Shown here piece after piece: positions 32,144 through 36,800 of a stretch of 64,000 nucleotides of DNA; within the stretch, counting starts at the first letter, position 1, and each line of letters opens with the position of its first letter. The notes beneath the pieces are model-generated. The model ran no database searches and had not been told where the DNA came from. It was given only the letters and a program-made list of their open reading frames with translations. Position numbers and translations under genes: made by a program. Origin of the DNA: an uncultured Gemmatimonadales bacterium (lineage in GTDB: Bacteria; Gemmatimonadota; Gemmatimonadetes; Gemmatimonadales; GWC2-71-9); assembly GCA_963795085.1 (NCBI GenBank), contig CAWCFX010000001.1, positions 256,001 through 320,000 on the forward strand, in the 5' to 3' direction.

Positions 32144-32343
32144 GGCATAGCGGTACTGGCGAAAGTCATCGGCGAGTGCCGAGAAAGGAAAATGCGGGAG
32201 GGGGCCCGATTGCAGGTCAAGGGAAGGAACTAGCGGACGAAGAGCGGGAAAATTGAGCGGAGCGTCTGGTAAACCTTAGCGGGGTTTGCCACTTCCGATG
32301 GGAAACATCCACCTGAAGTCCCGTGTTAGGGGGTGACGCTCAA

Positions 32344-32409
32344 ATGGTATCAGCTACGATCAGGTTTTTGATGAAGGTGTTGGGCGCTGGTGAGAACCAG
32401 TCTTGGTAG
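32344..32409 (+). CDS. Unannotated 21-aa peptide MVSATIRFLMKVLGAGENQSW
   Basis: SD-like AGGGGGTGA at 32328-32336, 7 nt before ATG; TAG stop; directly upstream of the HD-GYP gene; below the ORF-track cutoff. Confidence 0.65.
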   Translation: MVSATIRFLMKVLGAGENQSW

Positions 32410-32463
32410 CAAACTCGGGTCCCCACCCATTTTTCCGATAACGATTGTTTGGCTACGACACGA

Positions 32464-33849
32464 ATGCAGACACCTTCAAAGATAGCTGTTCTGGTCACCT
32501 GTGTAACGGTTGCCGCCATCTTGGCAGCAGTCGTGTCGTCGGCTATGCCGGGTGGCGAGCCTGGCGGAGCATGGGAGATTGTTTGTTTCATCATAATTGC
32601 CCTGATTCTTGAACGAAGTGGCACCTCGCTTCGGATCCAAGGCGCCGGTTCCACTGCCTTCATAATCAATATTTGTGCGGCCGTTCTATTTGGCGCCGGG
32701 TGGGGAGCGTTGATCGCTGGCACCGCCATGGCGATTAGCCAGGTCAGTCACAAGAAGCCTCTTGTGAAGGCCTTGTTCAATACCGCTCAGATGGTGCTTT
32801 CTATTGTTATCGCCGTCGCTGTCTACCAAGGTTTGGGCGGGTCAGTTCCACCCTCATATCTGTCCGTTTCCCAAGGCGTAGCTACTACTGCGGTGCAAAG
32901 AGATTTTGCCCTCTTCTTCGTCTTGGCCCTGACTTACTTTCTAGTCAACTCGCTCCTGGTCAACAGCGCCATTGCGGTTGCCTCTAAACGAAATTTCATT
33001 GAGGTTTGGGGCGCGAATACGCGAGGTGTCATCGGCTATGACATGGCGGCCAGCGCGATATCTATGGTCATGGCCTGGCTGTTTGTCTATAGTCAGCAGA
33101 ACTGGGGCTTTGGCTCGATTGCCATACTTGCCGTTGTCTTACCTATCGCATTTGTTAGGAAGACTTACGGCATGTATCGGGGACTGGAGGCGACTAGTCA
33201 GGAGCTTCTAGAAGTGATGGTTAAGGCAATAGAGTCTAGGGATCCCTATACCTCAGGGCATTCGGAGCGAGTGGCGGCATTGTCTCGGGTAATTGCTCAG
33301 GAAGTCGGTGGCTTCAGCAAGGATGACGTAGATAAGATCTATAAGGCGGCTCTGCTTCACGATGTTGGCAAAATGTACGAGGAGTTCGCGCCTCTCTTAA
33401 GAAAGGAAACGAAGCTTACGCAAGAAGAGCGGGAGCTCCTTCAGACACATGCGGTGAGAAGTGCAGAGCTTGTTGGCATTGTATCATCCTTCAAGGGGAT
33501 GGTCCTGGAATCCGTAAGGAGCCATCACGAAAGGTGGGATGGCCGTGGTTATCCTAGCGGCATCGCAGGGGAATCGATTCCAATCGGAGCCAGGATTATC
33601 ATGGTTTCTGATACAATCGATGCCATGACAACCGATCGGCCCTATCGAAAGGCACTCGGAGTCGATGTGGTAATTGCCGAACTTCAGAAGCACCGCGGCA
33701 CACAGTTTGATCCTGTCTTGGTGGATCTAGTTATCGGCTCCGTTACCATACGGCGCTTGATTACGCTTTCTGCCGCAAGTCCCGCCGTCCAAGGCTCCAA
33801 GCAAGTGGACTTGATAAGGACCGGCCAGTTCCATCGCAAGGTCAACTAG
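32464..33849 (+). CDS. Membrane-bound HD-GYP phosphodiesterase
   Basis: About 7 hydrophobic N-terminal segments; DPYTSGHSERV, LLHDVGK, HHERWDGRGYP, DAMTTDRPYR; low GC. Confidence 0.93.
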   Translation: MQTPSKIAVLVTCVTVAAILAAVVSSAMPGGEPGGAWEIVCFIIIALILERSGTSLRIQGAGSTAFIINICAAVLFGAGWGALIAGTAMAISQVSHKKPLVKALFNTAQMVLSIVIAVAVYQGLGGSVPPSYLSVSQGVATTAVQRDFALFFVLALTYFLVNSLLVNSAIAVASKRNFIEVWGANTRGVIGYDMAASAISMVMAWLFVYSQQNWGFGSIAILAVVLPIAFVRKTYGMYRGLEATSQELLEVMVKAIESRDPYTSGHSERVAALSRVIAQEVGGFSKDDVDKIYKAALLHDVGKMYEEFAPLLRKETKLTQEERELLQTHAVRSAELVGIVSSFKGMVLESVRSHHERWDGRGYPSGIAGESIPIGARIIMVSDTIDAMTTDRPYRKALGVDVVIAELQKHRGTQFDPVLVDLVIGSVTIRRLITLSAASPAVQGSKQVDLIRTGQFHRKVN

Positions 33850-36800
33850 GGATTATTTTTCGGGCTGGCATAAATCCCAGTCGTTCCAGGAACTGTCCAA
33901 CCGCAGGAGGTAGCGTTTCCAGTTCTCTCCGTAGGATCTCCTCAAGGCCAGTCGTATCCTGCCCCAAATGATTTCCAGTAACTATGACGGCACATAGAAT
34001 CTCGGTACGGTCGATCCTGTCATAAGTGTTCCGATTCTCAAACATTTTCTGAAGGCGGGGCGGTGGCACTTCCTTCTTGGAATTGCTGCAAGCAAGAAAC
34101 GCGACCCATCTAGCGAAAAGTCCCGCTGTATTTGGGCTTTGCAAGCGTTCCAAGCTGCTTGAAGTAGCCGCCTTGGCGACTCCCATAGCTTCATGAGTCC
34201 TGCCCAAGAGCAGCAAGCAATCAGCTAAGAAGAGCAGGCAGTTCTGCCTGATACGCAAGCTGTCTGTTGTTCCGGCAATTTGTTGGAGTTGCTCAAGCAC
34301 AGGTCGGGTCTCACCTTCGCGCCCCAAGATGGCAGTCGCAACAGCACCGTGGTATAAGCAGTGCGACAGATCATCTGTCTTTCTGTGTCCGTCATGTTCC
34401 AGCGCGGCACCAAGCCACGTTACCGCCTCCCGGTATTGGCCGAGCCTGGTGGAGCATCGGACGAGATTCGCCGCGACCCTGCTGCTCATACGCTCGTTTC
34501 CGACATGTTTCGCAATAACGAAAGCACGATAATGATGGGCGGTAGCATGCTCGTAGCTGCCAACTGCGGCATGTATGTTTCCTAGTGCCTCATGCACGGC
34601 GACCGCAACGGTATTCGCGGAATGCCGATCATCCAATCTTTGGGCTGCACATTCAAGTTCCTGGATAGCCTGGTCTGTGCGGCCTGCATGATAGTGAAGG
34701 ATGCCGCTTGCAACGGTGACGGTCGCATAGTCTTCATCGCTTAGTATAAGCCCTTCAAACGACAAGAGGATACAGGCCATTTGCGTTGATAATGAGGGTA
34801 CAATGGGTACATACACCTGAAGATAGGCTGCACTCCTAAATGCTTGCACCCTAGTGGCAATGTTCGAATCAGCTTGGGCGATTCTCAAGAGATGAACAAT
34901 CAAATCGTCTGTTGAGTCAGCGCTAATTATGCTTAGCCTACGTTTTGCCTCCACTGACAACACGAAAGCGGCAGTTGCTCTTGGATCACTGGGTGAAATT
35001 GGTTGAGAGGATAATACCGCCAGCGTGTCTTCCCATCGACCTTGCTCATGTAGCGCTTCCGCCAGTAGTAGCTGTGCATCAGTCCTTTTAGGCTCCTTGA
35101 GATCACCAAGCGCAGTCACCAGCGCCCGCTCCGCCTCGTGCGGCGCCCCGTGCCGGATGGCTTCCCGCGCACCGCTTAGCAGGTAGGGCGTCGCCCGTTC
35201 CAGTAGTCCCCCGCGGATACAGTGCCATGCGATCTCCAGCCCCGGAATGCTGATCCCCTGCTGCTCCTGGGCCAGGAGCCGCTCGGCGATGCTCCGGTGG
35301 AGGGTGCGCCGCACCGGTGATGGCACCTGCAGGTACGCCTGACCCCGCACCAGCTCATTGCAGAATTCCAGCCCGCGGCCGCCATCCCGCAGGATCCGCA
35401 TGTCGGTCAGCTTGCCCAGCCCGGTCATGGTCTGGCCGATGGTCACGTCGGCCAGCGAGTACAGGTCAATATCGTTGACCCGCGACCCCAGGACCGACGC
35501 CATATTGAGGACGTTCCGCACCGATGGCTCCAGTCCCTGGACCAGGCGTTGCACGATCAGCTTGTAGGTGAGCGAGGGTCCGTCCGCCGTCCGGGGTTCC
35601 TCGGTCATGGCCCCGATTGAAAGAGCCAGGCACTGCTCGCCGTTGGTCTCCCAGTCCTGCACCAGGTACTCGAGCACCATGGGATATCCAGCCGAGGCAT
35701 GGAGCAGCGCTCGCCGGACCGCGGCCGAGGGCTGGGGCCGGTCGGACGGAAGCAGGATCACCAGGAGGTCATCGGACTCCTGGGGCGACATCGGAGGCAG
35801 GTCCAGGATCTGCATCCGAAGCGGTGCATGGCCTTCCCGGAGCCACGCGGCATGGGGAGACTGTCCCAGCTCCGCCGGACGGGCCGCGAGCAGGACCATG
35901 ATGCGCTGGTCCTGGGTCCGCCGCATGACCAGGTGGAGGACCGCCAGGCTGGCGTCGTCGGCGAGGTGGACGTCGTCGATAATCAGGATGACCGGATGCT
36001 CTTCCGCGATGGAAAGGGTGAGCTGCTGGAAGGCCTCCGTGAGCCGGAGCCGGGCGGTTTCCCCCTGGGTCTCCAGCGGGTCGGGAATCGAGGGATACCG
36101 GCGCCGGATCTCGGGGACCGTGCGGGAGAGTTCCGCCAGCCATTCGGGAGGTGTTCCCGAGACGCCGGGCCGGTCCAGCAGCCCCGCCACCAGCCCGGTG
36201 ATGGCGGCATAGGGAATCTCCCGCTCAACCTCGTAGCAGGACACCCGGCTGAGCGCCGCGCCCTCGAGCCCGGCCGCCGTGCCCACCCGCTCGATCAGCG
36301 TGCTCTTTCCCACGCCGGAGTCGCCCAGGACCAGGGCATGGTGAGGATAGCGGCGCATGGTATTCTCCCACGATTCATACAGCGCGCGATACTCCTCGGC
36401 CCGCCCGATGAACGGCCGGCCCCGCCACTGGTCGGTCGGCACGGTGGGGATATTGGTACTGACCGTCTCCCAGTCGCGGCGCCGGAGCCGGATGGCGATG
36501 CCCTCCACCAGCGGCGATGGCGTGGCATGCAGCTGCTCATCCAGTTTTGCCTTCCATGCCTCGTAGATCTTGAGCGACGTGAGCCGGTCGCCATCGAAGG
36601 CCCGCGCTTCCATGCGGGCCCGGATGCCGTCTTCGCTCAGTTCATCGATGTCCAGCAGGTTGTGGCCGATCGACTCGATCCGCTTGAAATCGCCGGTGCG
36701 GCGGCAGCGGTCAATCATGCGGACGAGGGCGTCCCGCACGACTGGCACCCAGCGGGCCCGCTGCCGGTCGGTCCAGAGCATGAATTCGTGGGCGTCGGCG

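Follow-up and report, generated by a model that had tools for sequence, protein, structure and literature searches.

We analysed a window of 64,000 nucleotides (nt) from an uncultured Gemmatimonadales bacterium (assembly GCA_963795085.1, contig CAWCFX010000001.1, positions 256,001 to 320,000 of the forward strand; positions below are those of the window), in which a block low in guanine-plus-cytosine (GC) content begins at the end of one gene and stops inside another. Our preferred reading, to which we assign a probability of about 0.8, is that this block is the genome's copy of an order-wide hypervariable locus for cyclic di-guanosine monophosphate (c-di-GMP) signalling, the alleles of which are shuffled by homologous recombination among near-identical backbones. 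The locus comprises, in order, a GGDEF diguanylate cyclase, a protein of 246 amino acids (aa), a leader RNA, a micropeptide, a phosphodiesterase with MASE9 and HD-GYP domains, and a convergent regulator with SARP, STAND and tetratricopeptide repeat (TPR) regions (Table 1). Comparison with related loci indicates two variable modules: module A consists of MASE9 and the micropeptide's C-terminal tail, and module B of the TPR end of the regulator. In the mechanism that we propose, recombination would be anchored in the leader and first peptide codons, in the HD-GYP catalytic domain and in the regulator's first TPR repeat.

A two-changepoint fit places the block at 32141-35111 with a GC content of 0.526, against 0.718 in the left flank, 0.681 in the right flank and 0.670 over the remainder of the window. 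In 300-nt windows GC lies at 0.50-0.57 from about 32200 to 35050 and at 0.64-0.76 on either side, and no 1-kb bin of the window besides the block falls below 0.62. The dip exceeds chance: the 3.89 Mb genome yields 7762 windows of 1 kb, with a mean GC of 0.674 and a standard deviation of 0.030, and among these the windows of the block (0.521-0.526) are the 14th, 17th and 19th lowest. On the left the block starts at the stop codon of the 246-aa gene (32143), it contains the intergenic leader, the small open reading frame (ORF), the entire HD-GYP gene and the regulator's last 424 codons, and its right edge lies inside the 1178-codon regulator ORF (33842-37378, minus strand). A maximum-likelihood change-point puts a fall in GC at third codon positions (GC3) from 0.845 to 0.50 at codon 755 of this ORF (log-likelihood gain 75.6; two-log-likelihood support for codons 752-758, nt 35107-35125), in frame between ...EAERALV and TALGDLKE..., with the first Pfam TPR match spanning aa 737-800. 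The first-pass annotation, made from the letters of the window, had proposed an in-frame switch at 35100-35120 at the start of the TPR region; the sliding-window GC and GC3 profiles it called for recover both the block and the step, and its three hand counts (30/60 GC at 33181-33240, 29/60 at 34801-34860 and 43/60 at 35281-35340) are exact. Across the step GC at first codon positions drops less than GC3 and GC at second positions is nearly flat, so the shift is one at the DNA level and not of amino-acid usage. The same genome has other stretches of low GC (0.54-0.56), at C1:1081751-1100250 (18 kb), C1:421251-427000 and C4:1-5250.

Divergence along the regulator is far from uniform among its orthologues. 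The loci compared here and below are the related loci that were fetched, with synteny and the GC trough judged wherever a contig was long enough; tallies of genomes include the unpublished G018, G087, G204 and G301, no claim depending on these alone, and one locus from G018 (L029) enters the early synteny, GC, identity and GC3 comparisons and is omitted from later ones. The window's regulator is 75-80% identical to its closest relatives (P0002-P0005, compared as protein) over aa 65-755 and 31-41% identical over aa 761-1178, and conservation in the protein alignment is lost at about aa 786. The GC3 step of the window precedes this loss, leaving codons ~755-787 conserved in protein and AT-rich at third positions; a conserved first TPR repeat in AT-rich codons fits a crossover inside that anchor. 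Across 119 full-length homologues (7021 pairs), nine pairs with at least 0.95 identity in the N-terminal (N) part have C-terminal (C) parts at 0.35-0.91, and 15 of the 47 pairs with N parts at 0.9 or above have C parts below 0.6, counts that overstate the number of events because kin are not independent. Among them are P0026/P0064 (N part 96.5%, C part 91.2%), P0060/P0067 (99.0% and 47.8%) and P0014/P0037 (97.8% and 34.8%), and in such high-identity pairs the drop always falls within an aa 754-784 window. Single linkage at 60% gathers the 119 N parts into one cluster and divides the C parts into 81. The conserved N-terminal two thirds and divergent TPR end that had been anticipated for orthologues are thus recovered, with some protein pairs at 97.5-99% identity up to aa ~754 and at 35-48% thereafter.

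At the DNA level the edges of replacement are sharp. Loci L038 and L039 align by blastn at 96.8% over 3.7 kb, then have ~2.7-3.0 kb that cannot be aligned save for 734 bp of the HD domain at 69%, and then align at 97.3% to the contig end. The right breakpoint of this pair is at regulator aa ~792 and the left one inside the small ORF, whose two peptides have their first eight residues (MSLRSVAT) in common and diverge in the rest. L046 and L048 are 100% identical over 1633 bp, a tract that ends at aa ~593, where the GC3 change-point of L048 also lies. Change-points vary among loci, mostly within aa 720-800, a scatter that would follow from a different most recent breakpoint in every lineage. Trees of MASE9 and of the flanking genes conflict: in approximately unbiased (AU) tests, MASE9 data reject {L097,L098,L103} (p-AU 3e-52) and {L112,L056,L061} (3e-9), and flanking-gene data reject {L097,L100} (p-AU 5.5e-41) and {L056,L110} (1e-66), for clades that were chosen after the trees were seen and among kin that are not independent. 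Separate trees per segment had been suggested as a check by the first-pass annotation, which attributed the block to homologous-recombination exchange between conserved anchors; as judged from the L038/L039 alignment, the regulator pairs and these trees, such exchange of alleles is demonstrated in relatives.

The annotation had also named a peptide, a receptor and a TPR sensor as the parts exchanged, which correspond to the small ORF at 32344-32409, the MASE9-HD-GYP protein and the TPR end of the BTAD/AAA_16/TPR regulator. Their variability stood up and their unity as a single module did not, since the TPR end varies independently of the peptide and MASE9. In within-genus pairs and in DNA identity profiles the HD catalytic domain between the modules is usually as conserved as the flanks (0.79-0.99). 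Both modules differ in L074/L076 (backbone 86-98% at the nucleotide level, TPR end 34-57%, HD 92-96%, MASE9 48-67%), only the TPR end does in L109/L111 (same peptide, MASE9 0.95, TPR end 0.45), and mainly the peptide and MASE9 do in L069/L074 (MASE9 0.46, TPR end 0.72). A single peptide and a single MASE9 type (0.83-0.96) are found in L079, L082, L083 and L084, together with TPR ends at 0.28-0.82. Within this set of loci, modules A and B are shown to vary independently.

The small ORF lies directly before the HD-GYP gene on the same strand, preceded by a strong Shine-Dalgarno (SD) sequence and the spacer GACGCTC, in 73 of the 74 loci that cover the HD-GYP 5' region (several of which are near-identical duplicates), the exception being cut by a contig end. 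Its predicted products are peptides of 21-37 aa with a hydrophobic body of helix length, and they close with the motif (A/S/T)-E-x-x-x-W plus up to two further residues; this Trp is the sole invariant column across 62 aligned peptides. Within genera the body is near-constant, and variation is found at the three positions that separate E from W and at any position beyond W. With regulator N parts at 0.8 or above and near-identical duplicates dropped, MASE9 identity is 0.84-0.97 in the 11 pairs with the same tail and 0.38-0.87 (mean 0.58) in the 28 pairs with different tails. The association also crosses backbones: L097 and L100 have the tail AEGVDWR in common (7/7 residues) with MASE9 at 0.70 and a regulator N part of only 0.55, and L097 and L098, with N parts at 0.93, differ in tail and have MASE9 at 0.43. 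From these comparisons the peptide tail is shown to track MASE9 and not the TPR end. No Pfam or NCBIfam family matches the peptide, and an exact look-up of ten peptides found five in a public protein collection, under the sole name 'hypothetical protein'.

Structure prediction for the peptide of L039 with its MASE9 (aa 1-250) gave a complex score of 0.49, against 0.00 for the best of three controls, with runs agreeing in at least 92% of contacts and a partner predicted local distance difference test (pLDDT) value of at least 62. Among 157 solved complexes, 116 attain the mark used for such predictions, as do 2 of 215 mismatched pairs; at scores of 0.60 or less it is attained by only 18 of the 157 and by both passing mismatches. 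These counts hold only roughly here, as the prediction used our own alignments; the predicted complex lends weak support to an interaction. The authors who defined MASE9, Galperin and Chou, propose in their preprint that it binds ligands within the membrane (bioRxiv 10.1101/2021.11.05.467447).

Under the mechanism that we propose, the micropeptide would act on its own, cognate MASE9 as a ligand or partner, probably within the membrane, and would set HD-GYP activity and with it the c-di-GMP level, the leader RNA would gate translation of the peptide and of the closely following HD-GYP gene, and the TPR end would sense a second, unlinked variable ligand or cue. We put roughly even odds on the peptide and MASE9 forming a pherotype-like signal-receptor pair, and diversifying selection, proposed by the first-pass annotation, may act on the modules. 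More tentatively still, and with the balance tilted against it, the locus could be a Gemmatimonadales peptide pherotype for kin recognition, a type of system otherwise known only in Firmicutes, here wired to c-di-GMP, in which a Trp-tailed peptide would be the first MASE9 ligand, HD-GYP control would be allele-specific, a second, independently hypervariable STAND-TPR sensor would read another strain-specific cue and the GC3 trough would result from exclusion of homologous exchange.

Several observations, beside the non-independence of kin among regulator pairs, pull the other way. No relative closer than 80% in the N part was found for the window's regulator, so the window's own replacement event is inferred from its GC3 step together with the exchanges seen in relatives; a metagenome scan with the single protein gave 34 pattern matches and no confirmed one, and a second one, made with an alignment (A1), brought in 38 loci, the nearest of them no closer than 59%. 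Where tails differ by a single residue, MASE9 identity falls anywhere in 0.56-0.86. The end of the peptide ORF lies 4-60 nt from the HD-GYP start, and with peptide and MASE9 regions this close their co-variation could be plain linkage in one tract. Loci with the same peptide can have TPR ends only 0.28-0.54 identical (L083/L084 at 0.28, L109/L111, L079/L084). The conserved genes of the locus include no exporter, protease or modifying enzyme, and the genome's only two matches to polyprenyl synthases (PF00348), at C1:1028931 and C1:1163191, lie at 1.03 and 1.16 Mb, far from the locus at C1:288-293 kb. A look-up of RNA samples for 31900-35600 returned none. In some lineages HD-domain GC3 is like that of the backbone (L021 0.94, L023 0.93), so the trough is not always one continuous block. 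A reading of the peptide tail by the TPR end, which we considered separately, is disfavoured by missing co-variation in L083/L084, L109/L111 and L069/L074.

An alternative that we judge unlikely, and that retains the most weight, is that the small ORF has a purely regulatory role, as an upstream ORF or a leader peptide to which HD-GYP translation is coupled, with the tail hitch-hiking with the MASE9 tract and MASE9 diversity driven otherwise, for instance by phage or membrane-active antagonists. The short distance to the HD-GYP start is in keeping with this, as are the 14 nt before the HD-GYP start codon of L039, which hold no SD-like run, the conserved leader structure that sequesters the small ORF's own SD, and the invariance of Trp alone in the peptides; linkage could by itself produce the co-variation. 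It accounts poorly for a hydrophobic helix-length body and an E-x-x-x-W end kept across two families despite turnover of the sequence, for tails identical in 7/7 residues where MASE9 is only 70% identical (L097/L100), and for the weakly positive complex prediction.

The leader itself is conserved, over the ~130 nt before the peptide start codon, far above what is expected of intergenic DNA. RNAalifold predicts a helix P1 that pairs GAGCGTC (32260) with GACGCTC (32335), the spacer between SD and start codon; a hairpin P2 of 8 bp with a conserved loop (32268-32275 with 32283-32290); and a third helix in which the anti-SD CACTTCC (32290) pairs with the SD at ~32329. In an alignment of 58 sequences, 95.4% of cells are paired, against 43-52% with partners slid, 11 of 18 pairs have changed on both sides, and compensatory cells number 63, against a mean of 9.0 in shuffled alignments (0/500 shuffles reach 63); in a second family of the order the hairpin has an entirely different sequence and keeps its pairing. 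A covariance model (R1) has one match in the genome, at window positions 32215-32346 (E 1.2e-15); across the order it hits 63 of 151 genomes (49/61, 13/27 and 0/62 in three families), nearly always in a single copy. Rfam models run by cmscan over 31500-37800 gave no match at E<=1. The covariation thus identifies the leader as a new structured RNA, predicted to sequester the ribosome-binding site. It also carries four AGCGG repeats (32232, 32243, 32256 and 32278; spacings of 11, 13 and 22 nt), which could be an alternative or additional putative binding site for the SARP domain.

Fast evolution in place, by which a less constrained TPR end and MASE9 would diverge and drift to AT in each lineage without allele exchange, is in our estimate quite improbable. 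It would fit the much lower identity that the C part shows in every case (24-41%, versus 50-80% for the N part), a GC3 that is lower in the variable parts in all lineages and the gradual GC3 change-points of some loci. It is largely refuted by the pairs of backbones and modules: sharp-edged modules that cannot be aligned are flanked by backbones with 96-100% identical DNA, other equally similar backbones keep C parts at 88-91%, identical tails and related MASE9 domains sit on divergent backbones and different alleles on closer ones, and common trees are rejected by the AU tests. Returning to allele exchange, the composition of the modules calls for an explanation of its own. Family mean GC3 is 0.86 for the GGDEF gene (n = 18), 0.90 for the 246-aa protein (n = 22) and 0.82 for the regulator N part (n = 42), and 0.63 for MASE9 (n = 28), 0.64 for HD (n = 30) and 0.60 for the TPR end (n = 32); in every allele and lineage variable tracts lie at ~0.5-0.78 and backbones at ~0.75-0.95. 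With low GC3 in the alleles of every lineage and homologues found only in Gemmatimonadales, a low-GC foreign donor is unlikely, and low GC would appear to be a property of the modules in all lineages and not the sign of such a donor. Low GC3 may be intrinsic to the variable tracts: divergent alleles would rarely find an exchange partner and would escape GC-biased conversion or efficient selection, drifting to AT. Of the causes of the trough, AT-biased mutation combined with reduced homologous exchange inside divergent alleles would be the most economical, and this reduced exchange is, we infer, the most likely one.

Conservation across the order refutes already a third explanation, very improbable in our view, in which a classical horizontally acquired island of foreign low-GC DNA has replaced the gene end in this genome alone. 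The sharp compositional edges of the block would fit such an island, as would its place among the genome's lowest-GC stretches. Full-length orthologues of the regulator are present in many genera of the same family, and its N part is matched at E<=1e-100 in 195 of the family's 401 genomes, always once, and in 44 of 78 genera. Of the 12 loci first fetched, all have the HD-GYP gene convergent with the regulator and a GC dip at the matching relative position, and nine, wherever the contig reached, have the 246-aa and GGDEF genes next; gene order is the same in all later loci of sufficient length. In a second family of the order, three loci match in gene order, in the GC trough and in the leader, with a Trp-ended peptide clear in two of them; in the third (L148, from G032) the peptide frame from the conserved GTG has no terminal Trp and another frame has one, which may reflect a frameshift or a different tail. 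Trough and gene order are thus found in every long-enough related locus of two families, full-length homologues occur in genomes of this lineage, and every full-length match that carries an organism name is from Gemmatimonadales, the lineage having been taken from the source names of homologues. The annotation had seen no integrase, transposase or flanking repeat, and we likewise found that the five neighbouring proteins that were scanned contain neither an integrase nor a transposase domain, and there is no tRNA gene in 25000-42000 and only short, chance-like repeats in 31000-36500. The locus is accordingly chromosomally fixed, order-wide and syntenic, with none of the integrase, tRNA, repeats or patchy presence of a genomic island. 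A chimeric assembly at ~35.1 kb, which the annotation had itself raised and which only the abrupt GC change would favour, is a negligible prospect given a continuous reading frame, a protein that can be aligned along its whole length to over 100 full-length homologues built in the same way, conservation running ~30 codons beyond the GC3 step, and a 170-nt contig of run X2 (possibly the source sample and so not independent) that spans 35076-35245 with no differences. The sequencing runs listed each contained at most 0.15 of the stretch.

Polymorphic peptide-receptor loci are textbook cases of social diversification, known essentially from Gram-positives with kinase outputs. The present locus is a candidate polymorphic signal-receptor system in an abundant, little-studied diderm soil phylum and with a second-messenger output, and so places this type of system in a new phylum with a new output. 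It supplies a concrete ligand hypothesis for MASE9, for which we know of no ligand, offers a STAND regulator in which one allele of the sensor end takes the place of another while the backbone stays fixed, and brings to light a micropeptide family that had no annotation as well as a structured leader RNA that is new. It also illustrates clearly how a sharp GC step within a gene can be the trace of a hypervariable module that is old and has been exchanged repeatedly, and not of foreign DNA of recent arrival, and, if our account of the GC3 trough is true, would be a natural demonstration of GC loss in tracts excluded from homologous exchange in a GC-rich genome. Searches of the literature, supplements aside, found no published description of this locus.

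Among known systems, the agr groups of staphylococci have a hypervariable region inside intact genes that covers the signal peptide and the membrane sensor of the receptor, with a conserved cytoplasmic output. The present locus resembles them in an intra-genic hypervariable region over peptide and membrane sensor and a conserved output, and differs in having no AgrB-like processing protein, histidine kinase or response regulator, the scanned neighbours being the GGDEF cyclase and the 246-aa protein. In the RRNPP and SHP/Rgg systems of Firmicutes, the gene for a short hydrophobic peptide neighbours that for a cytoplasmic TPR-type regulator with a DNA-binding domain. The nearness of a hydrophobic peptide gene to a TPR regulator is common to these and to our locus, whose TPR end, unlike theirs, does not co-vary with the peptide and whose regulator joins a SARP/BTAD N-terminus to a STAND ATPase and is not of the helix-turn-helix-TPR type. 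That regulator shares BTAD/SARP, P-loop STAND ATPase and C-terminal TPR regions with AfsR-type SARP-STAND proteins and a fast-evolving sensor end with antiviral STAND proteins (Avs); unlike either, it is single-copy, syntenic across the order and located beside c-di-GMP enzymes. The PADLOC defence models gave a match to a generic TPR model only (E 1.3e-5) and none to Avs. To our knowledge, no SARP-STAND or Avs protein has been described in which alleles of the sensor replace one another while the backbone stays fixed.

The closest parallel is with ComQXPA of Bacillus. Its ComX is described as extremely variable save for a Trp near the C-terminus and as bound by the membrane domain of ComP, and the census in the same account reports no com-like locus outside Firmicutes (Dogsa et al. 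2014, PMC4008528). Our locus likewise has a small, highly variable pre-peptide with a constant Trp near the C-terminus, as found in 73 of 74 loci, a peptide gene that adjoins a polytopic membrane receptor whose polymorphic sensor domain follows the peptide, and alleles that are exchanged between close strains at breakpoints that leave the genes intact. It differs in having no adjacent ComQ isoprenyl transferase (by the PF00348 search, in this genome only), a peptide of 21-37 aa in place of 52-73, an HD-GYP c-di-GMP phosphodiesterase as output where ComQXPA has a histidine kinase, and a host in a diderm phylum. The co-variation of signal and sensor and the shuffling of alleles that characterise ComQXPA- and agr-type systems both appear in these sequences, with physical linkage as a possible cause of the co-variation; by analogy, the locus would work like a pherotype locus while not belonging to the ComQXPA family. 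With the MASE9-HD-GYP proteins treated by Galperin and Chou it shares the domain pair, and unlike those described it is directly preceded by a conserved, co-varying micropeptide gene.

Table 1. Features of the locus, with their window positions (nt unless marked aa) and the evidence that defines them.
Feature	Position	Strand	Basis
Low-GC block	32141..35111		Two-changepoint fit, GC profiles, genome-wide rank
GGDEF diguanylate cyclase, conserved flank	29603..31315	+	Pfam GGDEF E 1.3e-38; GGDEF motif aa 481
246-aa protein, conserved left anchor	31403..32143	+	No Pfam/NCBIfam family; 62-78% identity in orthologues
Structured 5' leader RNA of peptide gene (predicted)	32215..32346	+	RNAalifold, covariation, covariance model R1
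Micropeptide ORF, 21 aa, MVSATIRFLMKVLGAGENQSW, then stop	32344..32409	+	Homologous ORF and Shine-Dalgarno in relatives
MASE9-HD-GYP phosphodiesterase gene	32449..33849	+	Pfam HD_5 E 2.7e-34; MASE9 38.1 bits
MASE9 domain (variable module A)	aa 43-235, nt 32575-33153	+	PF20972, 38.1 bits against gathering cut-off 24.3
HD-GYP domain (more conserved spacer)	aa 255-423, nt 33211-33717	+	Motifs HD aa 304, HHERWDGRGYP aa 359
Regulator TPR end, low-GC, variable module B	33842..35111	-	Codons 756-1178; GC3 and identity break
Regulator N-terminal two thirds, conserved	35112..37186	-	SARP/BTAD region and AAA_16 STAND ATPase

Individual genes of the locus (Table 1) can be assigned with varying confidence. 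The GGDEF cyclase, 57-71% identical among orthologous loci, has an N-terminus resembling an Fe-S or [FeFe]-hydrogenase-like sensor (Pfam Fer4 and Fe_hyd_lg_C, ferredoxin-like and hydrogenase large-subunit-like). For the 246-aa protein, a structural model (pLDDT 81.6) retrieved 1sr9_A by Foldseek at E 3e-6 and 3f6g_A at a target-normalised TM score of 0.59; in this model the C-terminal half resembles the amino-acid-binding regulatory domain of LeuA and citramalate synthase, and the protein may be a candidate small-molecule-binding partner of the GGDEF cyclase. The HD_5 domain with intact HD and HHExxDGxGYP motifs places the phosphodiesterase in the HD-GYP group, with predicted activity on c-di-GMP. 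Its gene and that of the regulator are convergent, with stop codons overlapping by 8 nt (33842-33849). A lipoprotein gene upstream of the regulator (37521-38420) was considered as a third variable part and set aside, the upstream DNA being backbone-like (84-98%) where TPR ends differ.

In the regulator, Pfam finds AAA_16 (E 1.9e-23) and several TPR families, Walker A and B motifs lie at aa 352 and 464, and the window's protein gave no match to a winged-helix DNA-binding domain. The source names of its homologues include 'SARP family transcriptional activator', and its architecture of BTAD/SARP, P-loop STAND and C-terminal TPR regions would be AfsR-like, with BTAD scoring 18.1 bits, below the 22.1 cut-off. 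Orthologues begin at MGLPF..., codon 65 of the 1178-codon ORF, and so the true start is likely the ATG at 37186, with the first 64 codons probably untranslated; these codons (37187-37378, minus strand) have a GC3 of 0.5-0.6 and no counterpart in orthologues. The public gene call gives 1144 aa, with a start that is also upstream of that of the orthologues. Four TTA codons occur in the low-GC TPR end (33842-35114, minus strand) and none in codons 65-754. In L021 (from G021) and L025 (from G006) the regulator frame ends near the junction, after 731 and 831 codons respectively, with matches to the TPR end further on; for G021, another listing gives an open frame of 1142 aa.

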